From: Squalus acanthias
Taxonomy: Eukaryota
Assembly: GCA_030390025.1 (NCBI GenBank)
Contig: JASTWF010000033.1
Location: 3,102,001 to 3,166,000 of the forward strand
Direction of reading: 5' to 3'
DNA: 64,000 bases
Both the position numbers and the translations under genes were made by a program. Of the stretch, positions 1,173 through 56,664 are shown piece by piece. Within the stretch, counting starts at the first letter, position 1, and every line of letters begins with the position of its first letter. The notes below the pieces were generated by a model. That model saw only the letters and a program-made list of their open reading frames with translations. It was not told the DNA's origin and searched no databases.

Positions 1173-3117
1173 GAACATAAGAACTTAAGAAATAGTAGCA
1201 GGAGTAGGCCATTAGGCCCTTCGAGCCTGCTCCAGCATTCAATGAGATCATGGCTGATCTTCTGCTTAAACTCCATTCACCGTCCCTATCGCCATATCCC
1301 CTGATGCCCTTACGAGTCAGAAATATATCGACTTCTGTTTTGAATATACCCAATGACTGAGCCTCTTCAGCCCTCTGGGGTAGAGAATTCAAAAGATTCA
1401 TGACCCTCTGTGTGAAGAAATTTCTTCTCATCTCAGTCCTGAATGGCCTACCCTTTATCCTGAGGCTGTGGTCCCTGGTTATAGACTCCACAACCAAGGG
1501 AAACATTCTCCTAGCATCCACCCTATCAAGCGCTGTAATAATTTTGTACGCTTCAATGAGATCCCCTCTCATACTTCTGAATTCAAGAGAATACAGGACT
1601 AGTTTATTCAATCTCTTCTCATACAACAGTCCCGCCATCCCAGGAATCAACCTCGTGAACCTTCGGTGCACTCCCTCTATGGCAAGTTTATCCTTCATTA
1701 GGTAAGGAGACCAAAATTGTGCACAGTACTCCAGGTGTGGTCTCACCAAGGCTCGATATAATTGGAGTAAGACTCTTTACTCCTGTACTCAAATCCTCTT
1801 CTAATGAGGGTCAGCATACCATTTGCCTTCCTAATAGCTTGCTGTACCTGCACATTCACTTTCAGTGACTCAGGTACAAGGAAACGCAGGATCCTTTGAG
1901 CATCTGCATTCCCCAATCTTTCACCATTTAGGAAATACTCTTCCTTTTTTTTCTACCAAAGTGGATAACTTCACATTATCCACATTATATTCCATCTGCC
2001 ATGTTCTCGCTCACTCACTGAGCCTGTCGAGATCCCCTTGAAGCCTCTTCACATCCTCTTCACAACTGACACGGACACCTCGCTTTGTATCATCAGCAAA
2101 TTTGGAAATGTTACATTTAGTTCCCTCATCCAAATCATTGATACAGATTGTGAATAGCTGGGGCCCAATCAGCGACCCTTGCGTTACCCCACTAGTCACA
2201 ACCTGCCATCCTGAAAAAGACCCGTTAGTCCCTACTCTTTGTTATCTGTCTGTTAACCAATTCTCAATCCATGCTAGTATATTACCCCAATTCCATGTGC
2301 CTTAATTTTGTTCACCAACCTCTTGTGTGGGACCTTATCGAAGGCCTTCTGAAAATCCAAAAACACCACATCTACCGGTTCACCTTTGTCGACTTCACTA
2401 GTTACATCCTCAAAGAACTCTAATAGGTTTGGTAAACAGTATTTCTCTTTCATAATTCCATGTTGACTCTACCCAATCTTACTATTAGTTTCTAAGTGCC
2501 CAGTTATCCTTTATAATAGATTCCAACATATTCCCAACTACTGATATGAGGCTAGCAGGTCTGTAGTTCTCCATTTTCTCTCTCCCTCCTTTCTTAAATA
2601 GCGGGGTTACATTTGCTATCCTCCAATCTGCAGGAACCGTTGCAGAATCGATAGAATTTTGGAAGATGATAACCAATGCGTCCAATATCCCAATGACCAC
2701 CTCTTTCAAAAACCCTAGGATGTAGGTCATCCGGTCCTTGGGATTTATGGGCTTTTAGTTCCATTAATTTTGCTAGTACTGTTTTTGTTACTAATAATAA
2801 TTTCTTTAAGTTCGTCATTCTCGTCACACCCTTGGTTTTCTTGTATTTCTGGGAGGTTTTTTGTTTATTCCTCCGTGAAGACATTAACAAAGTATTTATT
2901 TAATTTCTCTGCTATTTCCTCATTCCCCATTATAAATTCTCCCGTCTCTGACTGTAAAGGACCTACATTTACCTTCGCCAGTCTTTGCCTTTTCACATAC
3001 CTGTAGAAGCTTTTACAATCCGTTTTTATATTTTTCACTAGTTTGTGCTAATATTCCATTTTCCCTTTCTTTATCAATTTCTTATCCGATTTCTAAAAAG
3101 ATCCCAATCCTCAGGCT
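1173..3117 (-). mobile_element. 5'-truncated, decayed CR1 LINE (RT and 3' end)
   Basis: Minus ORFs with [47 protein letters not shown]; short microsatellite tail at ~1173. Confidence 0.92.
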
Positions 3118-4019: not shown

Positions 4020-4699
4020 TGAGACAGAGGGAGAGAGACAGACAGAGTGTGAGACAGAGAGAGGGACAGGCCGGGTGAAATCAATGCGGGAGAGACAGAG
4101 AGAGGGACAGACAGAGAGTGAGACAGAGAGAGGGACAGACTGGGTGAATTCAATGCGGGAGAGACAGAGAGAGAGAGACAGACAGAGTGTGAGACAGAGA
4201 GAGAGAGAGACAGAGAGAGGGACAGGCTGGGTGAGATCAATGCGGGAGAGACAGAGAGAGAGAGACAGACAGAGTGTGAGACAGAGAGAGAGAGAGAGAC
4301 AGACAGAGTGTGAGACAGAGAGAGGGACAGACTGGGTGAAATCAATGTTGGAGCGACATAGAGAGAGAGACAGCCAGAGTGTGAGACAGAGAGAGGGTCA
4401 GGCTGGGTGAAATCAATGCGGGAGAGACAGAGAGAGATGCAGACAGAGTGTGGGTCAGAGAGAGGGATAGGCTGGGTGAAATCAATACGGGAGAGACAGA
4501 GAGAGAGATACGGGGAGAGAGTGAGATAGAGAGATAGACAGACAGAGTGTGAGACAGAGAGAGAGAGACAGACAGAGTGTGAGAAAGAGAGAGAGAGACA
4601 GACAGAGTGTGAGACAGAGAGAGGGACAGGCTGGGTGAAATCAATACGGGAGAGGCAGAGAGAGAGAGACGGGGAGAGAGTGAGACAGAGAGCGAGACA
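4020..4699. repeat. GA-rich satellite with core GGACAGGCTGGGTGAAATCAATGCGGGAGAGACAG (left block)
   Basis: Repeated core separated by variable (GA)n; the same array resumes at 13828. Confidence 0.9.
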
Positions 4700-7039
4700 T
4701 GCAATTCGTGTACGGAATACCTGGTCATTTGGTCCCGCCGTGGATACACCTCCGCGGACGGGCGACCTTTAACGGTGAAGCCCTTGCTGGAAAAGATCCT
4801 AGCAGCAGTAGGGGAGGAAGGGGAGATTTTCATCCATAAGGTGAAGGCTCACTCCTCCACAGAGCCCCGTGGGTAGGGCAACCAGCAGGCAGATGCGCTA
4901 GCCAGGGAGGGTGACCGTAACGGTATTTTCTGGGACCCCTATGGGCCCGGACCCGTGGCAGCGATCCAAGGTACGGCCGTGAACCCCGGGAACACCAGGG
5001 TAGCACTGCCACTAGACCTTAAGGCCGTCCAGAACCAGGATCTCGCCCTAAAAGCAGTTTGCAGAACCATTGCTGAGGGCAAGCAGGTGGAGGGTCCGTA
5101 CAGTACGGCAACCCTCTCCGTCAAAGAAGGCATGCTGTTCCGCGAGGAGCAGTGGGTTGTGCCGCAGCAGCACAGGAGGGAATTCCTCCAGTTGGCTCAT
5201 GAGGTGCCGGGGGCAGGGCACCCCGGGCCCGAGGTTACCTGGCAACTGGTAGAGCAGGCGGGATGGTGGCCGGGACTCAGGGAGCAGGTCCGCGAGTTCT
5301 GTGCAAGCTGTCTCGTGTGCGCTGCAAACAACCCAGAACCCCAGAAAAGGAAAGTGCCCATGGGGCACATCAGGAGGGTGGAGGGACCATGGCAGTCGAT
5401 ACAGATCGATTACATAGGGCCCCTGCCCACCACCCAGGGAGGCTACAAATACTGCCTCGTATTGGTGGATGTGTTTTCCAAATGGGTGGAAGCTTTCCCC
5501 TGTAAAACAGCTACGGCACTGGGTACTGCAAAGATCTTGGTCCGGGAAGTGTTCTCGCGGTGGGGACTCCCCCGTTTCGTGCAGTCAGACCAAGGGAGTC
5601 ATTTCACCGGCCAGGTGATGCAGAACACCCTCATGCTTTTGGGCATTGAAGAGAAGTGGCACGTAGCGCACAATCCCCAGTCATCCCGGATTGTTGAACG
5701 CATGAACCGGACCCTGAAGGAGAAATTGAAGAAAGAGACTATGAACTCGCCCCAAAATTGGGCCGAGGTTCTGCCTCTAGTCCTCATGGGGATCCGGGCC
5801 AGTCAGTCGAAAAGTACGGGGTATTCCCCGCACGAGGTGATGACTGGGAGGATCATGCGAAACCCCACCCATGTGCTAGCGCCGGTGCTCACTGAAGTGC
5901 AGCTCCAAGAGGTGAAAAGGGACAAGTTCGTCCAGACCCTCTTGGATCGCCTGAAGCAGGTTTATGAGCAGGCGGCTGGGAACATGGGAAGGCTGCACCA
6001 GGGCAATCGCCTGTTGCTGGAGCACCGCAAGAAGCAGGAGTGGGAAGTGGGAGACCAGGTCATGGTCAGAAACTATGCCAGAGTAGGGAGTCTGGAACCA
6101 CTGTATATGGGGCCCTACAGTATTGTAGATAAGGCGAGTCCCATGGTATACGCCGTAAAGGTACCTCGGCGCACCAAGTGGTTCCACGTAAATCAGTGCA
6201 AACTGTATAAGCCAGGTGCACAAGGGCCAACCACAGGGGCAAAAACTGCGCGTGGGGACACGCAGCCCCGGGTAGGGCCGCAGGGCACGCAGGCTGGCAA
6301 AGCAGCTTGCATCAGGGGAGAGGACATCCTAGCAAAATGTAGGATCCTTTATTGGGGTTGGGAGTCAAATGAGGAAGAGTTAGAGGAACTCGACCAAGAT
6401 AGTGACCCGAGCGAAGAGGAGCTGGGATCGGAGGACGAAAGGGTCGCTCCCGATTCAAGTAAAGGAAAGTTAGGGACTGCAGATGGAGGCCCATACAGGG
6501 TGGAAGCAGAAGCTGCAGGTCCCGAACTCAGGGGGGCGGAGCTAGGGGAGGCGGAGCCAGCGGCTGTGGTGGGACCACAGGACGTGGCGATGGAAGTCTC
6601 AGAACCCAGTCCGTCCGCCTTGGAAGTCTTGCCCTCGGGGGAGGTAGGGACTGCGAGTGAAGGGCCGCCTACTGGGCCAAGTAGGGCGGTGCCAGAGACT
6701 GCAGATCCCGAGTTCAGGGAGGCGGAGCCAGGGGAGGCGGAGCCAGCGGCTGTGGTGTGACCACAGGTCGCAACGGCGGAAGTCTCGAAACCCGGTCCGT
6801 CGGTCCTGGAGTTCTTGCCCCCGGTAGGCCCCCGTAGGTCAAGTCGGACACCCCAGCCCAGGAAGGTATGGTCAAGTCCCCAGAGTTTCCCAAGGCGTAG
6901 ATTCAAGGCTAAGGCAGCCCAGGGAGAGCCCAATCACAGCGCAGCAGCAACAGGCTGCGGCAGATCAAAGGGGGGAGGGGGGTCAGCGCCCTCCCACCGT
7001 TGCGAAAATCTTGTGGCCACCTTCACAGAATTTGAATAG
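4700..7039 (+). pseudogene. pol: pol 3' part: RNase H C-terminal half plus integrase with long C-terminal extension
   Basis: One frame from 4700: EYLVIWSRRGYTSADGRP..HKVKAHS..GNQQADALA (RNase H); HHCC; IDY/SDQG/IVER with D-35-E spacing; LYMGPYSIV..FHVNQCK (GPY/F); in-frame stops at 4874 and 6758. Confidence 0.93.
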
Positions 7040-7269
7040 GCCGCCCTGGGAACGGGCGGCGCTGTACAGTTGTATAAGATAAGTTAGAAGTTTTATAGTT
7101 TGTAAGTTTGTAAGTTTTATAGTTTTATTTTGATAACTAAAAGATAAATGATGGGAGTTTAGATAAGGTTTAGTTCAAGATCTATCCAGTGCACATGTCT
7201 TTTTACGTGAGGCGAGTTCAGGGGACCCGCTCACACTTCACCAAAAGCCAGAGACTCTTGGGAGGCTGG

Positions 7270-7293
7270 CTACATCATTTTATCTGATCACAG
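7270..7293 (+). promoter_or_regulatory. Putative env splice acceptor of provirus 1
   Basis: Pyrimidine-rich tract then CAG (7291-7293), 13 nt before the env ATG; same spacing in provirus 2. Confidence 0.6.
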
Positions 7294-7306
7294 GAACCAA
7301 GGAAGG

Positions 7307-10300
7307 ATGGAACGAATTCTGGTAGTGCTCGCGTCAATCAGATGAGGATTGGCCTATCGAGGCCGCACCAAGGATGCCGTGGTGTTTGGATGCTCCGGGG
7401 ACACTGCCCCCATCGCGGTGGATGGGACCGGGAGGCGAGAGGCTTAGGAGACCGCCATTTATTTCCACAAGGGAAGGTGCCCAGGATGGCTGGGAACGAA
7501 TTCAACTGAATATTCCAGTACATCGGGATTTGCCTACAAGGAGACTTCTTTAATGTGCCCCAAAGTGAGGATCATCGCACCCAGAGTCAGCGTCACCGTC
7601 GGCAAACGGATTTGTTTGACTTGTAATGGGAATGTCCCATTGAGCCGATGGTGGTAGCTACGAAAGCTGAGCAGAAATATGAGGAATTCTTCGGTCGAGT
7701 GGGAGCGACTGGATAATAATACCCATTGGACAATTACGGGGACTAACGGACAATTGAAAGTCTGTTGGGACAAATGGTGGGAACCGGATGAGGGAATTTA
7801 TTTATGTATGTGGGGGTCAAAGCACGTTTGCCCCAAAGGCATCTCCATATTTTTCGTGAATAAGTGGCAGGATTATGGGAAAGGGATGAGGTGCGATGCT
7901 AGCACCAGGGGGTGCGGAGCCCCATACTCTCCGATCCCGGTAAACGCCACTGAACTCATTACGTGCCCACGCAAGGCCCCACCCACGATTCCGCTGGTTT
8001 TGGCTCAGGAAGAAGGGTGCCCTAAAACCAGTAAGGGACCCGGGAATGGTTTGGTACTGGTCCCTACAGACCAGATACTATTTCAGGGGGTACATTACGC
8101 GGTGGCCTCGGTGATTTTAAACCTCACCGAGGTGCGGTTGCCAAAGTGGTGCCCCAAAGAGACGTAACAATTGTGCCAGGTCCTGTTGACCAATATGTTT
8201 AGACAATTTTATGAATTCGATTTTCGGAGATTGATTAAACACGTTTGTACACAGCACCACATGAAGTTTGGGGCCAGGTGGGGAGACAAAGAAGGGGTGT
8301 TGTGAACGATATGTTCACTGCGTTAAATACAGGGACGTCTGTGGTCAACACTCCAGGTAACGTGGAGTTGCAGACCCAGATTAATGGTTTAAAAACCCAA
8401 TTAAAGAATATCCTCACAGACGAAAATAAGGTGGTAGGGTCTGGGTTACATGAGGACCAGGCCATGATGCTCCACTTAAAAGAAATTATAGCTGAGCTGG
8501 AGAAACATGCGCGTACGGTAAATGCCCTGATCAGGGAAGATTGGAATGCGTCCGATCAGGCTGCGCGGAATGAGATGTGCGTGCTTTATGGGGCGTGGTT
8601 ACTGGGCGAGGGCCGCAGTAATTTGGAGGATTTAAAACAAGGTTTGGTCCCGTCCTGGATAAGTAACAAACACCTGCAGGCGCTCCACCCTTTTCAGAAC
8701 GCATTAAGCCCGTGCCAGCTCAGGCTAGCTTCAGAAGCATACCCAGTCTCCGTGGACTGCGGACGATCAAACCATAACATTATGGGTATACATAGAAACA
8801 TAGAAACATAGAAGATAGGAGCAGGAGTAGGCCATTCGGCACCTAGAGCCTGCTCCGCCATTCGATGAGATCATGGCTGATCATCTAAACTCAGTACCCT
8901 GTACCTGCCTTCTCCCCATATACCTTGATACCTTTAGTTTTAAGAAATATATCTAACTCATCCTTGAATATATTTAATGACTTCGCCTCAACTACCTTCT
9001 GTGGTAGAGAATTCCACAGGTTCACCACTCTCTGGGTGAAGAAATTCTTCCTCATTTAAGTCCGAAATGGTTTACCCGTTATCCGTAGATTATGACCCCT
9101 GGTTCTGGACTCTCCGACCATCGGGAACATTCTTCCTGCATCTAGTTTGTCCAGACCTGTCAGAATGTTATATGTTTCGATGAGATCCCCTCTCATTCTT
9201 CTATACTCCAGTAAGTATAAGCCCAATCGAACCAATCTCTCCTCATATGTCATTCCTGCCATCCCAGGTATCAGCCTTGTGAATCTTCGCTGAACTCCTT
9301 CCATGGCAAGAACATCCTTCCTCAGATAAGGCGACCAAAACTGCACACAGTACTCAAGGTGTGGTCTCACCAAGTCCCTGTACAACTGCAGCAGGACATC
9401 CCTGTTCCTATACTCAAAACCTTTCGCTATGAAGGCCAACATACCATTTGCCTTCTTCACCGCCAGCTGCACCTGCATGCTTACTTTCAGCGACTGGTGC
9501 ACAAGGACACCCAGGTCTCGTTGCACTTCCCCTTCTCCCAATCTATTGCCATTCAGATAATAGTCTGCCTTTCTGTTTTTGACACCAAAGTGGATAACCT
9601 CGCACTTATCCACGTTATATTGCATCTGTCACGCTTCTGCCCACTCACCCAACCTGTCCAGATCATCCTGGAGTTTCTCGCTATCCTCCTCGCTGCACAC
9701 ACTCCCACCCAGCTTTGTGTCATCTGCAAACTTGGAGATATTACATTTAATTACCTTATCTAGATCATTAATGTATATTGTGAATAGCTGGGGTCCAAGG
9801 ACCGATCCCTGCGGTACCCCACTAGTCACTGCTTGCCACTCGGAAAAAGACCCATTAATTCCTACTCTCTGCTTTCTGTCCGCCAACCAGTTCTCTATCC
9901 AAGTCAATACCTTGCCCCCAATCCCATGTGCCTTAACTTTACCCGCTAATCTCTTATGCGGGACCTTATCGAAAGCCTTTTGAAAGTCCAAATACACCAC
10001 ATCTACTGGTTCTCCCTTATCTATTTTCCCAGTTACATCCTCAAAAAATTCCAGTAGATTAGTCAAGCACGATTTACCTTTTGTAAATCCATGTTGACTT
10101 TGTCCGATCCTGTCACTGTTTTTCAAATGCTCAGCTATTACATCCTTTATAATGGACTCTTGCATTTTCCCCACTACCGATGTCAGTCTTACCGGTCTAT
10201 AATTCCCCGCTTTCTCTCTACCACCCTTTTTGAATAGTGGGGTAACATTAGCTACCCTCCAATCCATGGGTACAGTTCCAGATTCCATCGAATGTTGGAA

Positions 10301-11760
10301 GATAATCAGCAATGCATCTACTATTTCTAGGGCCACTTCCTTAATTACCCTAGGATGTAGATTATCAGGCGCTGGAGATTTATCGGCCTTCAATACCGTC
10401 AATTTCCCTAACACCATTTCCCTGCAAATACTGATTTATTTCAGTTCCTCCCTTTCATCAGACCGTATGTTCTCCAACATCTCTGGGAGGTTATTTGTGT
10501 CCTCCTTTGTGAAGACAGAACCAAAATATGCATTTAATTGGGCTGCCATTTCTTTGTTCCCCATTATAACTTCCCCCGCTTCTGACTGCAAGGGACCTAC
10601 ACTTGATTTCACTAATCTTTTTCTCTTCACATATCTATAAAAGCTCTTACAGTAAGTTTTTATGTTCCCAGCAAGCTTACTTTCATATTCTATTTTCCCC
10701 TTCTTAATTAATCCCTTTGTCCTCCTTTGTTGAATCCTAAACTGCTCCCAATCCTCAGGGCTACCGCTTTTTCTGTCCAATTTATATGCCCTCTGCTTGG
10801 ATCTTATGCTGTCCCTAATTTCCCTTGTTAGCCACGGTTGAGTCACCCTTTTTGTTTTATTCTTATGCCACACTGGGATGTACACATTCTGTAGTTTTAG
10901 GTATGCCGGTTTTGGGCGACACAGCAAAGCCCACCCCGGTGTATCGGGTAGAGAACATTGGTCTCATTCAGGGGGGAGCCCACATTCGCTACGCAGCGGT
11001 CCCACCTTACGTCATCCGCTGGGAGCAAACGATGACAGGTACAGATCTCTCTGGTTGTCGTGGCAGGGTAGCACACGTAATCCTGTGTCACCAGCACTTG
11101 AATGCCTTTTTATCACCACAGTGCAGGTTCAGAACGGCTGGCGCCAAGCCCATGAATTGCACCATGGAGGCATTGGCACAAGATCATGTGCCTCCGCAGG
11201 TGGCATACATAGGGGGTGGAACATATTGTGTTACCACTGCAGCGCAACACTACCAGCATGGAAACCGTAGCTGGTGTCCGGTGAGTGTCAGCAGTTTCAG
11301 TTTTAAACCCAGGGCTGAAGTTCAAGTGGCACAGCAGCGAATTGTCCAGATCCCTGAACCATCCACTGTTCATCTAACTGTGAAGGAGAATTTTACCGAC
11401 TTGCAGCGATTCGTCGCTCATTTCGGATACCTCATTCCCCCTCTCCCTGAACACCTCACCAAACTTTTGAAAGCCGTTGCGGTTTCGCAGAAACATTTTT
11501 ATACCCTTGAGCAAAAGACTGTCTGGATTGGGTCAGAGATCCTAGACATAGTGATTCCACCGTGGTGGGATGTGTTCCCCAACATTGAAGTGCCTTCCTG
11601 GATTAGAATAGCCTCCCACATTTTAGTTGTATGCCAGGTCATAATTGTTGTATACCTGTTGGTCGTGCACTGCAAGAGGGGCAAGCGCCTCACCAAACAG
11701 GAAAACACAGGAGAGTGGCGAGAGCATTACGTGCGCGTGCACGAAGAAAGCGCTGCGTAA
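7307..11760 (+). pseudogene. env: env of provirus 1 (signal peptide, Ig-like domain, RQRR furin site, F-like fusogen, TM), split by a CR1 insertion
   Basis: ATG 7307 MERILVVLAS; DEGIYLC; RQRR at 8284-8295 then GVVNDMFTALNTG and a heptad repeat; resumes in frame at 10894; TM ILVVCQVIIVVYLLVV; several stops and a frameshift near 8225. Confidence 0.9.
8791..10893 (-). mobile_element. 5'-truncated CR1 LINE inserted in env
   Basis: (CATAGAAA)n tail at 8791; RT ORFs with [26 protein letters not shown]. Confidence 0.96.
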
Positions 11761-12195
11761 ACGGCCAGAGTGGCGCCACTCCGCTTTTTTCCATGTGTGT
11801 CTCATAATTCTGTATTGATTGTTATTTTTCTTAGAACCTGTAACTAAGTTTGGAACTCTGTATTTTAAGAGTTGTTTTGATTATATTTAATTTTTTGTTG
11901 TTGAAAATGGTTGTTTGATTGCTTTGTTGTTCTTTTCCTTGAATAATAAAAAAACATGCATATACAGGTGGTGCAAGAGGCATCGGCCTGTTACACCTGG
12001 AAGACAGACACGCGGTGTAAGTTAAAGGCAAATGCTGCCTACGGTTTTATAAAAAATGTAATTTTTCCCTGGGAAATAAGGACGGCACGGAGACCCTAGA
12101 TAGTTTAAGTTAAGGGAGTATTTGGATATGGAGAATCGAGATAATGTTGCTCACCACCACTTTTAATTGATACGATAAACGGAGTTATTCGCATC

Positions 12196-12207
12196 AACAG
12201 GAGGGAC
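12196..12207 (+). promoter_or_regulatory. Polypurine tract of provirus 1
   Basis: AACAGGAGGGAC immediately before the LTR start TGTAG. Confidence 0.7.
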
Positions 12208-13827
12208 TGTAGAATTCGCAAAATATCGCGAGTTCGAAATAACGAGATAGAGACATACAGTTTTGTATAAACAGCTTTATTTCAGCAAAATGCTGTCATG
12301 TTTCAAAACGGAGACAAGCAGCCTGTAAAATGGCCGCCACGCCTCGTGGCAGAAGGTTATAGACTTTCAGTGGGCAGACAAGATGGCGTTTCAATAAACA
12401 TTTCAGCAAGATCGGACAGTACTCAGCATATTGATATAAGACAAGACGCGATCGTTTTGCATTTTTAACACCGAAGCAAGAAATATATGTGCTGGAATCG
12501 GTTTTCCATGCACAAACGAGGGCTATTGTACTGGGTAATCAAGGGCCCATCCAAAGACATTGATACGCAAATTCCCCGCGGCTCTACGATGAGAGAGCCA
12601 TTCGCGGGTACTAACAGCAAGAATTCGGAGGCCCCCAAAACTCCTCCAGGGAGACTCCCTAGCCGGTTCCACAATGGGAGAAATATTAACGGGTACTCAG
12701 ACAGTTACAAGTATCACCGATACCCATTAACGACAAGAACCAACCCGTACAAGAAGTTTGAGCGCCAAAAACATGACAAAAGATGAACATTAAGATTAGG
12801 CGGGAGATAAGGAATTACAGTACTATAACTGTAGTGTCCAAATGTCCATCTTTCTCTTATCCCTGACGACTCTTGACTCTTATTCTCTGATCCGCTGATC
12901 CTTCTGGGGTCGACCTCGTGGCTTGCCACGACGATCTGTGGAGAGCTGGTCTGCGAAGGCCTGCAAACGGGCACACCATCCCCAGAGGTCGGTAAACGGA
13001 GTTGCATCCGAAGGCCCGAGAGGAGATGAGATGAGATGAGATGAGAAGAGAAGAAGAAGACTACACGTGCCGCCGCGGTCAGTAAGCCCCGACCGCGCCC
13101 GAAAATCGATTAATCACTTCTTTGAATTTTATCGGCTACTCCACAACTGGCACCAGAAGACTCTTCTTCGAGTTTTACCGAACCGGTGTCGGCACAGGAA
13201 GACTCTTCTTTGAATTTTATCAGGAGTCCGTGGTCATCACAGATGTTCATGACAGCAGACGGTCCAGCCTGCTAGCCGGAGCAGAGCAAGTAAACAAGTG
13301 GGGTCCAGAGACCCCTGATCAACACGTGAATAGTCAGGTGTTGTGGCGAAAACATCCGAGCATCGTTTTAGAATTCTCCGAGTTATCACGAGTGGTGAGC
13401 ATGACGCTCGATCCTACAGATCTAGATTAGGACAGGAATTAATAGGGGAGGGTTTTCGTTTTAAGGATAATTATAATGTGTGTCCCCTTTTAAGATGTGT
13501 CGTGCGCTGCTCGTTTCCCTAAACCTAGTTTCATAAATGTATGTATGCTTTTACTGTCATTAATCTGTGCTGATGACATGTATTTCGTAATCTTGAACAA
13601 CATGCAATAAAGATTTTCCATTTCGTACTATTCAAACGGGTCTACCTGAGTTTTCTCTGCATTATTGCTCTCGCACCTAAGTCCAGTGTCAGAACCGTAA
13701 GGGCGAGTGCGTCGAACCACTCAAAGGTGTCTCGTGTTACCAGGCCGGCTGGAAACCAGAACAGGCAACGAGGCCTAACCCCGCACTAGCACCCAGGCTA
13801 AGCACAGAGCCATCCGAACCCCTTACA
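12208..13827 (+). repeat. 3' LTR of provirus 1 (1620 bp)
   Basis: Starts TGTAGAATTCGCAAAAT, ends CCCCTTACA; AATAAA at 13606-13611; termini match the provirus 2 LTR. Confidence 0.85.
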
Positions 13828-15050
13828 AGAAAGAGAGAGGGACAGGCTGGGTGAAATCAATGCGGGAGAGACAGAGAGAGAGAGACAGACAGAGTGTGAG
13901 ACAGAGAGAGGGACAGGCTGGGTGAAATCAATGCGGGAGAGATAGAGAGAGAGAGACAGACAGAGTGTGAGACAGAGAGAGAGACAGACAGAGTGTGAGA
14001 CAGAGAGAGGGACAGACTGGGTGAAATCAATGCTGGAGCGAAAGAGAGAGAGAGACAGACAGAGTGTGAGACAGAGAGAGGGACAGGCTGGGTGAAATCA
14101 ATGCGGGAGAGACAGAGAGAGAGACAGACAGAGTGTGGGTCAGAGAGAGGGATAGGCTGGGTGAAATCAATACTGGAGAGACAGAGAGAGAGAGACGGGG
14201 AGAGAATGAGACAGAGAGAGAGACAGACAGAGTGTGAGACAGAGAGAGAGACAGACAGAGTGTGAGACAGAGAGAGAGAGACAGATAGAGTGTGAGACAG
14301 AGAGAGGGACAGGCTGGTTGAAATCAATACGGGAGAGACAGAGAGAGAGAGACGGGGAGAGAGTGAGACAGAGAGAGAGACAGACAGAGTGTGAGACGGC
14401 GAGAGAGACAGACAGAGTGTGAGACAGAGAGAGAGAGAGAGACAGACAGAGTGTGGGTCAGAGAGAGAGACAGACAGAGTGTTGGTCAGAGAGAGGGACA
14501 GGCTGGGTGTGAGACAGAGAGAGGGACAGACAGAGTGTGAGACAGAGAGAGGGACAGGCTGGGTGAAATCAATGCGGGAGAGACAGAGATAGAGAGACAG
14601 ACATAGTGTGGGTCAGAGAGAGGAACAGGCTGGGTGAAATCAATGCGGGAGAGACAGAGAGAGAGAGACAGACAGAGTGTGAGACAGAGAGAGAGAGACA
14701 GACAGAGTGTGAGACAGAGAGAGGGACAGGCTGGGTGAAATCAATGCGGGAGAGAAAGAGAGAGAGACAGACAGAATGTGAGACAGAGAGAGGGACAGGC
14801 TGGGTGAAATCAATGCGGGAGAGACAGAGAGAGATACCGACACAGTGTGAGACAGAGAGAGGGAAAGGCTGGGTGAAATCAATGCCGGAGAGACAGAGAG
14901 AGAGAGACAGACAGAGTGTGAGACAGAGAGAGGGACAGGCTGGGTGAAATCAATGCGGGAGAGACAGAGAGAGAGAGACAGACAGAGTGTGAGACAGAGA
15001 GAGGGACAGGCTGAGAAAAATCAATGCGGGAGAGACAGAGAGAGAGAGAG
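13828..15050. repeat. GA-rich satellite (right block); low-complexity GA-rich DNA continues to ~16070
   Basis: Same core as 4020-4699. Confidence 0.9.
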
Positions 15051-16072
15051 AAGGGGAGACAGTGAGAGATACAGATGGGGGAGACAGACAGGGAGGCAGA
15101 GAGCGTGAGACTCTTGGGAGCGACAGACTGGGGAGATAGAGCGAGAGAAAGATCGGTGGAAAAAGGATGGGGGGAGAGACTGATGGAGACAGACGGGGCA
15201 GAAAGAAAGAAAGAAAGACAGACGGGAGTGCAAGACAGTGGTGGGAAGGGTGGGCGAGAGAGAGAGAGAGATAGATGGGGGAGAGAGCAAGAGTGAGAGA
15301 TGCGGAGACTAACGTTGGGAGACAGAGAGAGAGACACTTGGATTGAGACAGAGAGAGACACAGACGACGGGGGGTCACAGAGACAGACAGAATGGGAGAC
15401 CGAGAGGGAGTTAGTTGGGTGGGACATGATGTTGAGACTGGCGGGGGAGGAGAAGGACGAGAGGGAGCGACGCAGGAGATTGACGCGGGAGAGACAGAGG
15501 GAGACAGAGAGCAGCAGGGGACATTGATGTGGAGCAGTTTAGACAGGATGGGACAAGAGAGAAACAGGCGGGATTGGTGGGGAGAAAGAGCGAGATCGAC
15601 AGACAGGCAGTCAGAGAGAGAGAAAGCCAGGGGAGAAAGAGGGGTTGAGGAAGAGAGAGACAGACAGACAGAAAGACAGACAGGGTGAGATAGACACGGG
15701 AGAGACAGAGACAGAATGAGACAGATTGGGAGACAGACGGCAGGAGGCAGACGGAGGAAATATATGGTGGAGAAAGCGCGAGAGACAGAAATTGGTAGAA
15801 GGGCGGCGGGGATGGGTTCGGTGCGAGAGCCATGCAGACAGACGCAGGGAGATAGCTGGTGAGGAGAAAGACAGCGGAGACTGATGGGGTGAGAAACAGA
15901 GAGAGGTACAGACGCAGGGAGATAGATGGGTAGGAGAAAGACAGGCGAGATGGATGGGCTGAGACACAGAGAGAGGGACAGACGCGGTGAGAAAGAAACA
16001 GTGAGATGGACGGGGGAATTAGACAGCTCGTGACAGACCGGAGAGTTAGCAAGGGGAGGCAAGATGGAGGAA

Positions 16073-17455: not shown

Positions 17456-19350
17456 GTGGATTGGAGGCTGTATTAGTTTGAGGGGCTGTGTTAGTGTGAG
17501 GGGCTGTATTATTTTGAGGGGTAAAATCAGCTTGAGGAGCATTATGAGTTTGAGGAGCTGTATTAATTTATGATGGTGTAGTAGTTTGAGGTGCTGTATT
17601 AGATTGAGGGGCTTTATTAGATTTAGGGTCTGTATTAGTTTGAGGGGCTGTATTAGTTTGAGGTACTGTATTAGGTTGAGGGTGTGTATTAGTTTGAGGT
17701 GCTGGATTAGATTGAGAGGATGCATTAGTTTGAGCTACTTCATTAGTGTCAGGGAGTGTATTAGTTTGAGGAGCTGTATTAGTTTGATGGACTGTATTAG
17801 TTTGAGGTACTGTATTAATTTGAGGAGCCTTGTTAGTTTTAGGTACTGTATTACTTTAAGGGGATGTATTAATTTGAGGTACTGTATTAGTTTGAGGTAC
17901 TGTATTACTTTGAGTGGTGGTATTAGTTTGAGGTACCGTATTACTTTGAGGGGATGTATTAATTTGATGTACTCTATTAGTTTGAGGGGCTGTATTAGTT
18001 TGAGGTACTGTATTAGTTTGAGGGGGTGCATTAGTTTGAGGAGCTGTATTAGTTTGAGTGGCTGTATTAGTTTGAGGTACTGTATTAGTTTGAGGTGCTG
18101 TATTAGTTTTGAGGTACTGTATTAGTTTGACATACAGTATTAGTTTCAGGGGCTGTATTATTTTGAGGTGCTGTATTAGTTTGAGGTGCTGTATTAGTTT
18201 GAGGTACTGTATTAGTTTGAGGTGTTGTATTAATTTGAGGGGCTGTATTAGTTTGAGGTGCTGTATTAGTTTGAGGTACAGTATTAGTTTGAGGGGCTGT
18301 ATTATTTTGAGGTGCTGTATTAGTTTGAGGTGCTGTATTATTTTGAGGTGCTGTATTAGTTTGAGGGGCTGTATTATTTTGAGGTGCTGTATTAGTTTGA
18401 GGTGCTGTATTAGTTTGAGGTGCTTTATTAGTTTGAGGTACTGTATTAGTTTGAGGTGTTGTATTAGTTTGAGGGGCTGTATTAGTTTGAGGGGCTGTAT
18501 TAGTTTGAGGTGTTGTATTAATTTGAGGGGCTGTATTAGTTTGAGGTGCTGTATTAGTTTGAGGTGCTGTATTAGTTTGAGGTGCTGTATTAGTTTGAGG
18601 GGCTGTATTAGTTTGAGGTGCTGTATTAGTTTGAGGTACAGTATTAGTTTGAGGGGCTGTATTATTTTGAGGTGCTGTATTAGTTTGAGGTGCTGTATTA
18701 TTTTGAGGTGCTGTATTAGTTTGAGGGGCTGTATTATTTTGAGGTGCTGTATTAGTTTGAGGTGCTGTATTAGTTTGAGGTGCTTTATTAGTTTGAGGTA
18801 CTGTATTAGTTTGAGGTGTTGTATTAGTTTGAGGGGCTGTATTAGTTTGAGGGGCTGTATTAGTTTGAGGTGCTGTATTAGTTTGAGGTACTGTATTAGT
18901 TTGAGGTGTTGTATTAGTTTGAGGGGCTGTATTAGTTTGAGGGGCTGTATTAGTTTGAGGTGCTGTATTAGTTTGAGGGGCTGTATTAGTTTGAGGGGCT
19001 GTATTAGTTTGAGGGGCTGTATTATTTTGAGGTGCTGTATTAGTTTGAGGTGTTGTATTAGTTTGAGGGGCTGTATTAGTTTGAGGGGCTGTATTAGTTT
19101 GAGGTGCTGTGTTAGTTTGAGGTGCTGTATTAGTTTGAGGTGCTGTATTAGCTTGAGGTACTGTATTAGTTTGAGGTGCTGTATTAGTTTGAGGGGCTGT
19201 ATTAGTTTGAGGGGGTGTATTATTTTGAGGTGCTGTATTGTTTTGAGTGGCTGCTTCAGTTTGGTTATTTTTATTAGAGGTAGTTTATTAATTGGAGAAT
19301 GTATGTAGAGTTGATGGGCTGTATTAGTGAGGGGCTGTATTAGTTTGAGG
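17456..19350. repeat. 18-bp minisatellite (TGTATTAGTTTGAGGKGC)n
   Basis: Direct periodicity, about 100 units. Confidence 0.97.
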
Positions 19351-29859: not shown

Positions 29860-30059
29860 CTCCTGAACTCTGTTACTGCCCTTCTCATTGTGTACTGGAT
29901 TTCAGAATTTCGTTTAATTCGAAAACTATAAAATGATGTTGTGTTTACCCAACTCTAGGTCATTAATATGTATCAAAAATAGCAGTACTCTAATAGCGAC
30001 TCCTACGGTACACTTCTGTATACCTCCCTCCAGTCTGAAAAACAACTTGTCACCACGAC

Positions 30060-31565
30060 TCTTCCCCAACCCACCTTTTATCCTCAGCTCCTCCTTAACC
30101 CACCAATTATCCTCAGCTCATCCCCACCCCACCTAATATCCTCAGCTCCTCCCCACCCCACCTAATATCCTCAGGTCCTCCCCAACCCACCAATTATGCT
30201 CAGCTCCTCCTCACCCCACCTAATATCCTCAGCTCCTCACCACCAAACCTAATATCCTCAGCTCCTCCCCACCCCACCTAATATATTCAGCTCCTCCCCA
30301 CCACACCTAATATCCTCAGCTACTCCCCACCCCACCTAATATCCTCAGCTCCCCCCACCACATCCAATATCCTCAGCTCCTCCCCACCCCACCTAATATC
30401 CTCAGCTCCTCCCCGCCCCACCTAATATCCTCAGCTCATCCCCACCCCACCTAATATCCTCAGCTCCTCCCCACACCACCTTATATCCTCAGCTCCTCCC
30501 CACCACACCTAATATCCTCAGCTCCTCCACACCCCACCTAATATCCTCAGCTCCTCCCCACCCTACCTAATATCCTTAGCTCCTCCCCACCCCACCTAAT
30601 ACCGTCAGCTCCTTCCCACCACATCTAATATCCTCAGCTCCTCCCTTCCACACCTAATATCCTCAGCTCCTCCCCACCCCACCGAATATCATCAGCTCCT
30701 CCCCACCCCGCCTAACATCCTCAACTCCTCCCCAACCCACCTAATATCCTCAGCTCCTCCACAGCCCACCTAATATCGTCAGCTCTTCCCCACCTCAACT
30801 AAGATCCTCAACTCCTCCCCACCCCAACTAATATCCTCAGCTCCTCCCCACCCCACCTAATATCCTCAGCTCCTTCCCACTCCACCTAATATCCTCAGCT
30901 CCTCCCCACCCCACCTAATATCATCAGCTCCTTCCCACCCCACCTAACATCCTCAGCTCCTCCCCAACCCACCTAATATCCTCAGCTCCTCCACAGCCCA
31001 CCTAATATCGTCAGCTCTTCCCCACCTCAACTAAGATCCTCAACTCCTCCCCACCCCAACTAATATCCTCAGCTCCTCCCCACCCCACCTAATATCCTCA
31101 GCTCCTTCCCACTCCACCTAATATCCTCAGCTCCTCCCCACCCCACCTAATATCCTCAGCTCCTCCCCACCCACCTGATATCCTCAACTCCTCCCCAACC
31201 ATCGAATATCCTCAGCTCCTCCCCACCCCACCTAATATCCCCAGCTACACCCCACCCCACCTAATATCCTCAGCTCCTCCCCAACCCACCAATTATCCTC
31301 AGCTCCTCACCACCCCACCTAATAACTTCAGCTGCTCCCCAAACCCACCTAATATCCTCAGTTCATCAACACCCAACAAAATATACTCAAAGTCCCACCA
31401 CCAAAATAATTTCCTCAGATCCTTCCCACCCCTCCTAATGTCCATAGTTCCTCCATTGCTCACCTGATATCTTCAGCTCCTCCCCAGCTAAATCTAACAT
31501 TCTCAGATCCTCCACATCCATCTAATATACTGAGCAGCACCCCACCTCCACCTAACACCCTCAAC
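30060..31565. repeat. 29-bp minisatellite (CTCCTCCCCACCCCACCTAATATCCTCAG)n
   Basis: Direct periodicity, about 50 units. Confidence 0.96.
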
Positions 31566-40651: not shown

Positions 40652-41062
40652 TGTAGCTTTTAAAAGCTCTTTATAATAATTTGTCCATGACTCCACAAAC
40701 CACTCTGGGTCCAACTATATTGTGTATAAATAAAACAGGGTTATTAAGCATTAAACATCCAGTACAAAGAAGTAATACTTAACAAGAATATATTTGCAAT
40801 CTGTTCATTGAACCACGGCGTTCTTTCCGAGTGACTGTGGTGCGATGTCTTTATTCTCTTGCTGTGTTCTGTTGACTGAAGCTTCTCATCCTTTGATTTC
40901 ACACGCTGCTTTCGGTGTTCAATATCTACATTTTTATACCCAATTTCCTCCCGTTTTGCCCAAGTGGCAGTAATTAGCTCTCTGACACCTGGTAAATGTC
41001 CCTCCTTTACTTGTCAGTCATCTTATGACCTTGTTAATCCCACTAGGTCTCTTTCTGTGTAT
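40652..41062 (-). mobile_element. Possible LTR fragment (TATA/R/U5 side) of another family
   Basis: Abrupt TGTAG boundary interrupting a CR1 remnant; minus-strand TATAAAA near 40935 and AATAAA near 40852. Confidence 0.4.
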
Positions 41063-42842: not shown

Positions 42843-43075
42843 CAGACAGCTTGATTGGGCCCCAATACCAAAAGCTGTCCACTGCCTGGCCACGCCCCTC
42901 CGCAGCCTGTCTGCGTCTGTGAAAGTTGTCTTTCCCCACAATAAGATTCAAAAAGTCATTTTCCTCGGGGTTTTTCTTCCTTGATCTTTAAAAATGTCCA
43001 AAACTGAGGTTTTTACTTCAAATCACTTCACTTAGGGTTCTGTTCGAGTTTCTGGGGGATTTTGCGAAGCCTACA
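42843..43075 (-). repeat. Partial LTR (U3 start) of the provirus 2 family
   Basis: Homologous to ~44193-44437; terminus TGTAGGCTTCGCAAAAT at 43075; no adjacent PPT. Confidence 0.88.
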
Positions 43076-44751: not shown

Positions 44752-47062
44752 TTATTTTGAAGCACTTCCCAAGTCCCTTCGTGTCTGGAGCAGTGCTCCC
44801 CGTCCCTTCCCCTGCACTTTGTACACAGCAGGTAGAGAACTATCCCGAGCTGGCAGACCACCAAAAGAGCGTGAAGCCATCCTGATCCAGGAAGGCACCT
44901 CTATATTCTCGAAAATATACCACCAGGGTGGAACTACTATATCCAAAATTTCTGCCCCTATTTCAACTGTTTTCTGTTCCAGGGTGTAGAAATGTTTTTG
45001 TGAAATCTCTACAGATTTAAGCAGGATGGTAAGATGTTCGTTTAGAGGGGGAATTTTATATCCAAAGTAAGTCACATACTTTTGCAGGTTGGTGATGTTT
45101 TCTGTTACAGTGAGGTGAACAGTGGAGGGGTCAGGAATGGGGACAATCCGTTCCTGGGCCACTTGAAATTCTTCCTCGGGTTTAAAGCAGAAACTGCTGT
45201 CACTTACCGGACACCAGAAGTGTCCATGCTGGTAGTGGGACGCACCTGTGGTGACACAATATGCCCAACCCCCTATATATGCAACCTGTGGGGAAACATG
45301 GCCGTGTGCCATCACCTCCGTGGTACAGTTGATCGGTCGTGCGTCAGCAGCTTTAAACCCGCACTGTGGTTTCGAATAGGCGTTCAAGTGCTGGGGACAC
45401 AGTATTATGCGTAAACCCCGGCTCCGCAACCCGGAGAGGTCAGTCCCTGTCATGGCGTGCACCTACTTTATGACATAAGGTGGGACCGCTGTAAAACGGA
45501 TGTGTGCACCCCCTTGAATGACTCCAATGTTCTCCACCCTGTATACCGGTACGGGTCGGGCTGTCCCACTCATGACCGGCATTCTCACTACTATCCCCAT
45601 GATAGTGTGATTTGAACGCCCACAATCTATTGGGACAAGGTAAGCTTCAGAGGCTAGAAGAAATTGGCATGGGCTTAGCGAATTACTAAACGGGTGGAGG
45701 GCTTCGAGGTGCTTGTTGCTGATCCAGGAGGGGACAAAACCTTGCTTTAAATCCTCCAGGTTGCTACTGCCCTCGCCCAGCAACCATGCCCCGTACAGCA
45801 CACACACCTCATTCTGTGCAGCCTGATCCGGTGCATTCATATCCTCCCGCATGTGTGCATTTACTGTTTTGGCATGCCTTTCCAATTCTGCAATAATTTC
45901 CTTTAAATGAACCGTCAAAGCTTGGTCCTCATGTAGCTCTGAGCCAACCACTGTGTTCCCATCGTTCAGGATCTTTCTTAACTGGGTTTTTAAACCATTT
46001 ATCTGTGTCTGTAATTCCATGTCATCCAGGCTATTTATTACAGAGGACCCTGTACTATAGGCAGTGAAGACATCATTCCAGGCTCCCCTTCTTTGTCTAC
46101 CCGTGCCCATAGGGTTCTCAGGGTGTATTCTGTATAGCTCTACCTTGTCAATATTGGCAAAATCAAATGCATAAAATGTCCTAAATATTTCCTTTAGCAG
46201 GGCCTTGTACAGCTGCTTCGTCTCCTTGGAACACCACTCAGGTAAGTATACCTCGGTAAGGTTTAATATTACTGAAGCTACTGCATAGTGTACCCACTGG
46301 TATAGTACCTTTTCGGTTGGTACTAGGACTAACCCATTCCCTGGCCCCTTAGTGTTGGTAGGGCACTTTTCTTCCTGGGTCGTGGGTAGGGGCTTTCGGG
46401 TGTGTGCCACGAGTTCAGTGGCATTAACTGGGACCGGAATGTGTGGGACCACGCACCCATGCAGGCTAGAATCCCACCCTATCACCTCCCCGGCATCTTG
46501 CCATTGGCTGGAGAAGATGATGGATACCCCTGTGGGGCAGGCTTCCTCAGATCCCCACATATAAAACATAGACTCCCTCTTCCGACTCCCACAACTTATT
46601 CCAACAAACACTAACTCCTCATTGGGTTCCTGTGATTTTCCGGTGGGTGTCGTTCCCTTATCTTTCCCACTCGGCTGTATGGTCCCCTGCTTCCCTGCTG
46701 AGCCTCCTGAGCCACCACCACCTATTCAGGGGATTTCGTCCCTTACAGGTAAGGCACAAACGCTTCCCCTCGGTGACACTGACCCTTGTGGCAACGACCT
46801 GCATTCTGGGGCATGGGAGGGAGGCCTCCCCGTACGTGAACCCGGGCTGGTTGAGGTATTTAGTAGAGTGGGACCCCAGCCACCCTGGCCATCTTCCTTC
46901 GTGGAAGTAGATGTCGAGCTCCTCCACTCCCCGCTCGCCACCCCCTGCGGTAACGACTGGTGCTCTCACTGCTGAGCACCCATAGATGTGGGAGTCCTCC
47001 ACGTCACCTCGGTCACCGAAGCTCACCCCTACCAGGGCGAGCAGGAGCAGAAACCTTGTCAT
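44752..47062 (-). pseudogene. env: env of provirus 2
   Basis: ATG 47062 MTRFLLLLALVGVSFG; VSVTEGKRLCLTC..WWWLR; RQRR at 46098-46087; F-like Cys-rich region; stops and frameshifts; acceptor CAG at 47078-47076. Confidence 0.9.
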
Positions 47063-56660: not shown

Positions 56661-56664
56661 TTGA

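Follow-up and report, generated by a model that had tools for sequence, protein, structure and literature searches.

A candidate immunoglobulin-like domain ahead of the F-like core in an endogenous retroviral Env of Squalus acanthias

The window analysed here, a stretch of 64,000 nucleotides of a Squalus acanthias contig, contains two dead copies of one endogenous retrovirus type, recognised by frame reading and tblastn (Table 1). The 5' part of env copy 1 is broken by in-frame stops (7343 TGA, 7445 TAG, 7655 TAG and 8165 TAA), the third of which falls within a run of Trp residues, and a frameshift follows near 8221-8302. The frame from the ATG at 7307 reads ...RVSVTVGKRICLTCNGNVPLSRWW(TAG)LRK...QLKVCWDKWWEPDEGIYLCMWGSKHVCPKGISIFFV. 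As the initial annotation had pointed out, the immunoglobulin (Ig)-like domain of this copy is missed in the open reading frame track because stops split the env frame. The middle part carries an RQRR-type cleavage motif followed by a hydrophobic peptide and the first long helix, as read from the natural open copy P0003 and, for the helix, from its model. The reverse transcriptase of the non-LTR retrotransposon fragment inserted in this env lies on the minus strand, and further copies of the repeat are found elsewhere in the window. Env copy 2 belongs to a second family. The motifs previously reported for it (VSVTEGKRLCLTC..WWWLR..VCW..EEGVY) are present, but they are on the minus strand, at 46987-46502, and are interrupted by three stops and then by a frameshift in the F-strand region.

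Upstream of env, the locus L032 of this family encodes a gag zinc knuckle, a protease, a reverse transcriptase, an RNase-H-like tether, a second RNase H and an integrase, with the Pfam domains RVP, RVT_1, RT_RNaseH/RT_RNaseH_2, RNase_H and rve. The order gag, pol, env was observed, and an LTR pair was not found for the one element examined in this respect (L032 versus L033).

Table 1. Retroviral and inserted features of the window.
Feature	Position	Strand	Evidence
pol 3' part of copy 1: integrase zinc-binding, core and SH3-like domains	4697..6760	+	Pfam; 95% nucleotide match to L032 8112-10000
env copy 1, 5' part (Env residues 1-333)	7307..8302	+	tblastn with natural open copy P0003, 86% identity; translations
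Signal-peptide-like hydrophobic N-terminus (MERILVVLA...), split by the first stop	7307..7363	+	Sequence reading alone
Pre-Ig segment, near-invariant motif GRWPGWLGxNSTxYS	7364..7552	+	Alignment conservation; pLDDT <50 in both models
Ig-like domain (Env residues 83-187)	7553..7867	+	Signature, Pfam, profile, models, structure searches
Cys/Pro-rich linker, ending at the conserved CPxxxxGPxxGLV motif	7868..8017	+	Alignments and motif positions
env copy 1, middle part, different frame (residues 306-495)	8221..8790	+	tblastn with P0003
Non-LTR retrotransposon fragment, ~2.1 kb, inserted in env copy 1	8791..10887	-	Gap between env matches; Pfam RVT_1 3.4e-31
env copy 1, 3' part with membrane anchor (residues 494-783)	10888..11757	+	tblastn with P0003, 92% identity
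env copy 2 (second family), three frames	44766..47062	-	tblastn with P0003; translations
Ig-like domain of env copy 2	46500..46813 (about)	-	Translations; Pfam Ig_3 E=0.026

The env family is very abundant in the genome. Intact copies, which the initial annotation had proposed to look for, were found in the form of many natural open copies, and the stop-to-stop env frame reaches at least 797 codons in 11 of 30 fetched family-1 loci. These natural copies from the same genome were used for the tests in place of a consensus env. In the Ig part, pN/pS is 0.10 across the 30 family-1 copies; as these resemble the window copy most closely at the protein level, pN is biased downward. Between families 1 and 2, dN in the same part is 0.245 and dS is saturated. 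The Ig-like module is under purifying selection, and we regard the env family as having been active in recent times, with selection maintaining a functional env.

The Ig motif claimed for the frame from 7307 was borne out by translation. Cys106 (TGT, 7622-7624) and Cys167 (TGT, 7805-7807) are 61 residues apart, Trp 115-116 come 9-10 residues after Cys106, and the sequence DEGIYLC is also there. This agrees with the V/I-type signature of a B-strand Cys, a C-strand Trp about 10-15 residues on and a DxGxYxC motif on the F strand, 55-75 residues after the first Cys. The domain is slightly wider than first proposed (7565..7862), comprising residues 83-187 (7553-7867). Predicted strands span residues 87-89, 94-97, 101-107 (with Cys106), 115-121 (the Trp run), 133-135, 141-146, 149-154, 163-169 (DEGIYxC, with Cys167) and 180-187. 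The signature exceeds chance, since Cys106 and Cys167 are both kept in 30/30 fetched family-1 loci, an undamaged motif occurs in 13 of the 14 family-2 frames examined, and PDB profile matches and Pfam Ig_3 (in 7 of 10 members) agree with it. In the alignment, Cys106 and Cys167 are lost jointly in P0037, and the two residues probably form a disulfide. A second disulfide had also been suggested for an extra Cys pair. The co-occurrence of C103 and C153, both present in families 1 and 2 and both absent in the P0015 lineage, fits this idea but does not prove the bond itself. C84 and C175 are a further putative pair. Several N-glycosylation sequons lie within and near the domain in the sequence of P0003.

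A family profile of the Ig segment matched Ig-superfamily (IgSF) chains among PDB sequences by hmmsearch, namely titin (5.8e-7, a sum over several Ig domains) and two scFvs (2.1e-4 and 3.6e-4), and also contactin-3, FCRL5, TCR, JAM, CRTAM and CD8a. Antibody or IgSF names account for 59 of the best 60 PDB rows, the exception being ArfGAP1. Pfam Ig_3 was the top family in seven of ten divergent members (best E 7.7e-4), and V-set (1.3e-3) and I-set (0.029) were each found in one of them. No Ig family reaches the Pfam curated cut-off of 30 bits in the window, in P0003, in the relatives or in the ten members, where the best score is about 16-17 bits. With ESM-Atlas features, the Ig clan makes up nine of the ten best named clusters (scores 0.88-0.90); the Atlas search with residues 20-237 scored 0.80 and was uninformative on the flanks of the domain.

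AlphaFold models of this part are of low confidence. The mean pLDDT was 37.7 for residues 20-250 with 20 sequences (50-68 in the Ig region) and 55.8 for the whole Env with 59 sequences, where the N-terminal 235 residues stay below 50 and the Ig region at 35-50. The same nine-strand pattern was obtained in the Ig region in both runs. Foldseek on the Ig model returned antibody-type V-domain chains in its first 50 rows (E 1.6e-3 to 4.7e-3, rmsd about 2.9 A across about 89 columns), and VIA-align returned Ig domains alone over model residues 64-157, among them CD79b, basigin, NCAM2, titin, obscurin, IgNAR and TCR V. The VIA-align Z values are 8.4-7.1. Values near 8 are also typical of unmatched models according to the tool, but rank 50 stands here at 7.1 versus the usual 4-5. 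It should be noted that these structure matches start from low-confidence models, which can yield meaningless matches.

The Ig fold of the initial annotation is thus backed by Ig_3, by the PDB profile and by the structure rows, but below the Pfam cut-off and with a pLDDT of 35-68 in the region. Residues 83-187 are best explained as an IgSF V/I-type beta-sandwich, as judged from sequence and models together. A fortuitous motif, or a small beta-sandwich of a different kind (fibronectin type III, for instance), would be compatible with Pfam matches that are all sub-threshold, with the low-confidence models and with a Z of about 8. However, the HMM profile, the per-member Pfam searches, the language-model features and two structural aligners all give the Ig clan and no other, and the Cys/Trp/Tyr-corner spacing is canonical, which makes a non-Ig domain quite improbable. 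The domain shares with V/I-set domains (antibody V, CD79b, basigin, titin I-set) the B-strand Cys, the C-strand Trp, DxGxYxC, the 61-residue Cys spacing and the predicted nine-strand sandwich. It differs from them in its low identity (9-22%), in the extra cysteines 84, 103, 153 and 175, in the WWW run, in a Trp-rich E-F loop (WDKWW) and in staying below the Pfam thresholds.

The remainder of the Env corresponds to a different type of protein. The core begins at residue 238, at the CPxxxxGPxxGLV motif, and has a pLDDT of 75-92 in the whole-Env model. Foldseek with this model gave human parainfluenza virus 3 F (hPIV3 F, 3.1e-11) and then PIV5, RSV, Nipah, Hendra, NDV and HMPV F; F proteins fill all of the top rows (3.1e-11 to 2.4e-7), and 234 matches have an E of 1e-3 or lower. 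Therefore, the core is predicted to have a paramyxovirus/pneumovirus F-like fold, that of a class I fusogen. This relation comes from predicted structure and not from Pfam: Fusion_gly (PF00523) gave no match on P0003 at E<=10 nor on 47 relatives at E<=1 or 0.5, hmmsearch of a whole-Env profile against PDB sequences returned nothing meaningful, and a weak Baculo_F match was obtained in one relative (P0040, E=0.0011). In P0003, GRQRR directly followed by GVVNDMFTAFNTGTSVVNAL reads as a putative basic cleavage site with a hydrophobic fusion peptide, and IASHILVVCQVIIVVYLLVV as the predicted C-terminal membrane anchor. The placement of the Ig domain between the signal peptide and the fusogen, as proposed in the initial annotation, was confirmed in natural open copies, where a single continuous env frame runs through them and the fusogen is F-like by Foldseek. 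The Ig-like domain is not a neighbouring host exon, since it lies within that one open env frame. It was also considered as the own Ig-like domain II of F, and this was rejected: the domain II strands are at 586-645, far downstream, and the N-terminal piece alone yields Ig matches.

Paramyxovirus F starts directly after the signal peptide and depends on a separate attachment protein. The Env described here resembles paramyxovirus and pneumovirus F in its predicted fold from residue ~238 on and, by sequence, in its predicted cleavage into a small N-terminal and a C-terminal fusion subunit. Unlike paramyxovirus F, it has an extra 215-residue N-terminal module and is encoded in a retroviral genome. 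F-like fusogens on retroelements are also known in errantivirus and invertebrate Ty3/gypsy Env, together with baculovirus F, and the available text of that work reports that the invertebrate F-type elements lack homologues in the genomes of vertebrates, and makes no reference to Ig domains (bioRxiv 10.1101/2023.10.26.564294).

A close published parallel is found in the lokiretroviruses, whose Env is related to the F of Mononegavirales (Wang & Han, Mol Biol Evol 2020/21, PMC7947760). According to the available text of that paper, they share with the present element the degraded RNase H tether, the second RNase H and the integrase, and an F-related Env with signal peptide, basic cleavage site, fusion peptide, coiled coil and membrane anchor. 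Canonical retroviruses also have this pol arrangement. Moreover, relatives of the present Env were found in eel, coelacanth and frogs, groups with lokiretroviruses reported there (PMC7947760). As to the differences, the cleavage motif is RQRR here versus RXKR, PF00523 was undetected here at E<=10, and the Env model given there has no N-terminal domain (PMC7947760). Membership of the present element in the lokiretroviruses would fit these sequence and model features. Whether their Env had already been annotated with an Ig domain was also checked, and neither 'immunoglobulin' nor 'Ig-like' occurs in the text available to us, which names five host classes without including cartilaginous fishes (PMC7947760). 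The present Env would extend F-type-Env retroviruses to cartilaginous-fish-like hosts, where they are unreported in the literature searched. The earlier statement that no retroviral Env of this architecture has been described stands for F-type Env, as an Ig-like module on such an Env was not described in the literature searched, but UniRef automatically names one relative, P0015, 'Ig-like domain-containing protein'.

Regarding its function, the module of ~215 residues in this F-like class I Env follows the signal peptide and precedes the F core, and the Ig centre of that module (83-187) is probably a receptor-binding head. The receptor-binding domain of gammaretrovirus SU and herpes simplex gD are N-terminal Ig-like beta-sandwiches that bind a receptor; their sequences are unrelated to the present one, their fusion machinery is different, and no result of the analysis links them to it. 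With a receptor-binding role of the Ig-like domain, a single F-type glycoprotein would both attach and fuse. Furin-type cleavage at RQRR would leave the domain on the N-terminal (F2-like) subunit, and binding could be linked to the triggering of fusion. No confident placement of the domain on the trimer came out of the models. Paramyxovirus-type F proteins are usually seen as fusion-only and partner-dependent, and here an abundant natural F-type Env has its own candidate attachment domain.

The module could be real and have a different function. As a shield, a decoy or an immune-modulating surface, it would mimic an IgSF ligand, for example, or cover the F head against antibodies. Decoys with Ig-like domains are known from viruses, the weak Atlas neighbours include a poxvirus soluble interferon receptor cluster, sequons occur in and around the domain, and entry cannot depend strictly on the module because lineages without it exist. 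Nevertheless, an F-type Env without a partner glycoprotein needs an attachment surface, and the pN/pS of 0.10 reflects conservation and not the diversifying pattern expected for an antibody target; this role is considered fairly unlikely. Alternatively, the module could be a regulatory clamp or pro-domain that keeps the F-like core prefusion until it is triggered, replacing the stalk of an attachment protein, with attachment residing elsewhere. Its location on the F2-like subunit, adjoining the conserved CP...GLV start of the core, and the near-invariant GRWPGWLGxNST of the pre-Ig segment, which would suit an intramolecular contact, agree with this. However, the whole-Env model has no confident contact between module and core and the eel and coelacanth relatives lack the module entirely, so that a clamp seems unlikely as well. 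Under the favoured receptor-binding reading, the sister lineages without the module provide a ready comparison for how a class I fusogen gains receptor specificity and couples binding to triggering.

The distribution of the module is uneven. Ig-like N-termini were found in divergent shark, skate and frog lineages, the signal peptide is joined directly to the CP...G(L/I)V core in eel, coelacanth and one further relative, and the Mustelus lineage has a Cys-rich N-terminus in place of the module. On the core tree, the N-terminal state changes at least three times. Given its presence in shark, skate and frog and its absence in eel, coelacanth and the further relative, the Ig-like module is old and prone to gain and loss rather than newly captured from a host. 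Families 1 and 2 have a W-x-x-[WF]-W...G-x-[IY]-x-C stretch in common with the Chiloscyllium and L057 lineages, and this suggests a single ancient origin, at least for the lineages of cartilaginous fishes. MAFFT aligns the frog Ig regions only partly, and homology between the frog and shark modules is not established by alignment.

The initial annotation had entertained that the domain was taken from a host gene, and a capture that is recent or confined to this virus was not supported. A host Ig exon taken up recently by this particular virus would agree with the vertebrate V/I type of the domain and with the differing N-terminal modules of the lineages. Against it, the examined matches of an exhaustive phmmer search with the whole Env (52 proteins from 1.84 billion representatives) included no host IgSF gene that corresponds to the Ig segment, identity to PDB Ig domains is 9-22%, the conserved stretch is common to the two families and the Chiloscyllium and L057 lineages, and dS between the families is saturated. 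Such a capture is highly improbable. In a more speculative scenario, which we consider less likely than not, a host-type IgSF V/I domain was acquired once by an ancient lineage of F-type-Env retroviruses, after the signal peptide and ahead of the F core, turning a fusion-only protein into one that attaches and fuses, and this slot has since served as a host-range cassette open to exchange (shark, skate and frog lineages being Ig-like there, the Mustelus lineage Cys-rich, and the eel and coelacanth lineages empty). If so, the huge constrained env families would record recent infectious spread in cartilaginous fishes.

Among the same phmmer matches, P0048 (5014 residues) matched Env 22-88 weakly at 16 places, and its score adds up from pieces of 6-10 bits; it is a bacterial-type beta-helix repeat protein and was taken as a chance match. 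The other examined matches are Env relatives or gene models that join an Env piece to a host gene, and such fused models are flagged here for the public shark annotations.

The N-terminal module of the endogenous retroviral envelope (Env), between the signal peptide and the core, was read in the initial annotation as an immunoglobulin (Ig)-like domain. This reading of Env residues 83-187 (window 7553-7867, forward strand) is well supported by the agreement among independent methods (Pfam, a PDB profile search, ESM-Atlas, AlphaFold, Foldseek and VIA-align), none of which is of high confidence alone, the domain lying below the Pfam cut-off. In the frame of ATG 7307, a hydrophobic leader is followed by a conserved segment and then by RVSVTVGKRICLTCNGNVPLSRWW-stop-LRK...QLKVCWDKWWEPDEGIYLCMWGSKHVCPKGISIFFV. 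The residue signature was confirmed, with the TGT codons at 7622 and 7805 corresponding to Env residues 106 and 167.

In the Pfam analysis, Ig_3 was the sole or best-scoring family for window copy 2 (E 0.026), for P0003, a natural open Env of family 1 (E 0.49), and for the metagenomic P0012 (E 0.0085); the exception was P0037, with V-set (E 0.045). The Ig segments were also cut out of ten divergent members (families 1 and 2, the L057 lineage, skate, sawshark, P0012, Chiloscyllium, two frogs and one further). Ig_3 matched seven of them (best E 7.7e-4), V-set, I-set and Ig_2 one each, and the curated Pfam cut-off was reached by none of the ten. A profile of the ten-member alignment gave 359 matches at E<=10 against all PDB sequences, led by titin (5.8e-7, summed over several Ig domains), two scFvs (2.1e-4 and 3.6e-4) and contactin-3 (4.2e-3), with FCRL5, light chains, TCR alpha, JAM, CRTAM and CD8 alpha lower down; 59 of the best 60 are Ig proteins, the exception being ArfGAP1. 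ESM-Atlas features of residues 83-192 placed the Ig clan in nine of the ten best named clusters (scores 0.88-0.90), a match that, by the tool's stated figures, counts only as a lead. The automatic UniRef name of the Chiloscyllium relative P0015 is 'Ig-like domain-containing protein', so the Ig signal in one relative has already been picked up by a database rule.

Concerning the structure, the AlphaFold model of residues 20-250 (20 sequences, mean pLDDT 37.7, Ig part 50-68) presents strands at 101-107, 115-120, 132-134, 141-146, 149-155 and 164-169, and the whole-Env model (59 sequences, Ig part 35-50) shows the same strands plus 87-89, 94-97 and 180-187. The best 50 Foldseek rows for the shorter model are chains of ~100-215 residues, nearly all from entries titled antibody, Fab, scFv or nanobody (E 1.6e-3 to 4.7e-3, rmsd ~2.9 A over ~89 columns). 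With VIA-align, run on 48,161 representative chains, the first 50 entries had Z from 8.4 down to 7.1, all covering model residues ~64-157 (Env 83-176) and including CD79b, basigin, NCAM2, titin, obscurin, IgNAR V, Dpr4 and TCR V. According to the tool, best Z values of 7-8 are common even for unmatched models; distinctive here are the Z of 7.1 still reached at rank 50 and the single fold common to the named rows. The Pfam and AlphaFold/Foldseek checks proposed initially returned Ig families and chains, at sub-cut-off scores and low pLDDT.

The remainder of the protein is predicted from its model to be an F-like fusogen. Core pLDDT is 75-92 at residues ~236-310, 420-650 and 730-760, and the leading Foldseek rows of the whole-Env model (234 matches at E<=1e-3) are paramyxovirus and pneumovirus F proteins, with hPIV3 F first (3.1e-11), followed by PIV5, RSV, Nipah, Hendra, Langya, NDV, HMPV and mumps. 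The sequence and model of P0003 also show a GRQRR motif with a hydrophobic stretch after it, long helices and, at the C-terminus, a membrane anchor. Pfam Fusion_gly was not detected in P0003, and Baculo_F matched one relative weakly. The main text on lokiretroviruses (PMC7947760) describes an Env with signal peptide, RXKR, fusion peptide, coiled coil, membrane anchor and PF00523 similarity, in hosts of five named classes, cartilaginous fishes not among them. The words 'immunoglobulin', 'Ig-like', 'shark' and 'cartilaginous' are absent from that text, whose supplements may bear on the presence of the module in fish or reptile Envs. An Ig-like Env module is likewise unmentioned in passages from the Odin and Troyka papers, the errantivirus F-type Env preprint (bioRxiv 10.1101/2023.10.26.564294), a 2026 ERV structure review, the DIGS paper and the BHIKHARI preprint, and full-text literature searching gave nothing relevant on it.

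The motif CPxxxxGPxxG(L/I)V opens the alignable core in all full-length relatives. It is preceded by 149-263 residues in families 1 and 2, L057, Chiloscyllium, two frogs, P0037 and Mustelus, and by 19-22 residues (signal peptide only) in eel P0073, coelacanth P0051 and P0036. A G..V.I.C / W / (D,E,S)G.I.C pattern runs through the long N-termini, and families 1 and 2, P0015 and L057 have in common, between strands E and F, an unusual W-x-x-[WF]-W...G-x-[IY]-x-C; the N-terminus of the Mustelus group is Cys-rich and was left without an assignment. In a maximum-likelihood core tree of 12 rows without outgroup, Ig-bearing lineages lie on either side of the midpoint, P0036, which lacks the module, pairs with Ig-bearing P0037 as its sister (91/97), and three or more changes of module state occur. 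A constraint that groups the three rows lacking the module was disfavoured (p-AU 0.023), for a grouping named post hoc and involving long branches. In the shark sub-lineage formed by P0014, P0025, P0028, P0033 and P0035, which is the sister group of families 1 and 2, the N-terminal module is different and Cys-rich, and may be a degenerate Ig domain (ICFTC...YVC) or something else. The pre-Ig segment (Env 20-82, window 7364-7552) contains GRWPGWLGxNSTxYS, nearly invariant in skate, shark and both families; its AlphaFold model and ESM-Atlas searches gave no fold or family assignment.

The initial annotation had also suggested capture of the domain from a host gene. When the whole Env was searched exhaustively with phmmer in a set of 1.84 billion representatives, only 52 matches were obtained. 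Of the 20 looked up, 17 are skate, shark, frog, coelacanth and eel proteins, mostly 'uncharacterized', and one further match, a bacterial repeat protein, was judged to be due to chance. Several matches are gene models in which a zinc-finger, Niban, cadherin or F-box gene is joined to part of Env. No host IgSF gene and no close host relative were seen among the matches looked up or read; the module is therefore old within this Env family, judging from these sequences, and recent capture is unsupported. As a side observation, the public gene models of other sharks in which Env pieces are joined to Niban-like, zinc-finger, cadherin and fbxo15 genes (P0009, P0010, P0013 and P0040) are likely annotation artefacts.

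Regarding its function, the module would belong to the F2-like subunit at the N-terminus of an F-type glycoprotein that is self-contained, and it appears to be constrained, Cys-rich, endowed with predicted glycosylation motifs and gained or lost between lineages. Since these features resemble those of the receptor-binding heads of other viral glycoproteins, a receptor-binding role is favoured by analogy, with about even confidence, inside an overall statement considered somewhat probable. The main rivals are that the module could act as a shield or decoy, or as a clamp.

The family-1 search of the window's own assembly (3.7 Gb), using the window segment with stops as X, flagged 7,260 candidate places at first look; 150 were scored and all matched (E<=7e-152, 90-100% identity). 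As to the intact copies called for in the initial annotation, 11 of the 30 fetched loci have a stop-to-stop env frame of at least 797 codons; the natural open copy P0003 (L021:1360-3708, 783 residues) was used as stand-in instead of a consensus. Family 2, likewise large and represented in the window by copy 2, gave 5,845 candidates, with listed open frames mostly up to ~808 codons and ~58% identity to family 1 over the N-terminal 230 residues. P0015 as query retrieved many lineages that are older and more diverged (34-80% identity), among them L057 with an open 784-codon frame. Among 30 family-1 copies, chosen as best protein matches to the query, which limits the selection reading, pN/pS was 0.18 for residues 1-84, 0.10 for the Ig part, 0.17 for the linker and 0.13 for the core start. 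These low values indicate that most inter-copy differences arose with env under selection, which fits a family-1 spread dependent on a working Env. Between families 1 and 2, dN of the Ig part is 0.245 and dS is saturated. In loci L008-L030 an in-frame ATG (MSFYVRRGQG...) is kept 111 bases (37 codons) 5' of MERILV, so this env start is only presumed.

Upstream of env, the family-1 locus L032 encodes, in this order, a zinc-knuckle gag, protease and RT, an RNase-H-like tether with a second RNase H after it, and integrase, which is an organisation of the retrovirus type. No LTR pair was found around this element, the one examined. Gag, protease-RT and RNase H-integrase share one frame with single stops between them, of which 5982-5984 may be a read-through site and 7386-7388 may be damage.

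Features of the window
Feature	Position	Strand	Detail
Integrase domains, 5' of env copy 1	4877-6760	+	Pfam
Env copy 1, residues 1-333	7307-8302	+	tblastn
Env copy 1, residues 306-495, past frameshift	8221-8790	+	tblastn
Insertion in env copy 1 (non-LTR fragment)	8791-10887	RT on minus	~2.1 kb; tblastn gap
Env copy 1, residues 494-783	10888-11757	+	tblastn
Env copy 2	47062-44766	-	three frames
Non-LTR fragment	1174-3115		
Non-LTR fragment	41062-42843		
Non-LTR fragment	58885-62890		
Tandem repeat beside copy 1	4021-4623		~69-71 bp
Tandem repeat beside copy 1	13828-15051		~69-71 bp
Minisatellite array	17467-19247		period 18 bp
Minisatellite array	30059-31563		period 29 bp
Minisatellite array	52917-54456		period 25 bp
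Minisatellite array	56663-57460		period 74 bp

Comparison of a natural open copy with the window by tblastn showed that env copy 1 is present in its full extent and badly broken, with stops at 7343, 7445, 7655 and 8165 in the ATG 7307 frame and an inserted non-LTR retrotransposon fragment encoding a reverse transcriptase (Pfam RVT_1 3.4e-31). The window contains four or more occurrences of this ~2 kb fragment (70-78% identity), and the pair 1174-3115 / 8797-10759, LTR-like at first glance, was rejected as part of this repeat. The second provirus of the initial annotation does carry an env copy, which is found on the minus strand.

Family homology of copy 1 spans 4697 to 13827 and the same tandem repeat flanks both sides, so the 5'-truncated copy either lies within a satellite array or bears the array at its ends. 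Copy 2 (46502-46987, minus strand) has a twin ~246 kb distant on the same contig (G000:C2561:3395279-3395764); the two are 99% identical and share the same three stops, a pattern suggesting that a segmental duplication followed the death of this copy. The window is very repeat-rich overall, with large minisatellite arrays.
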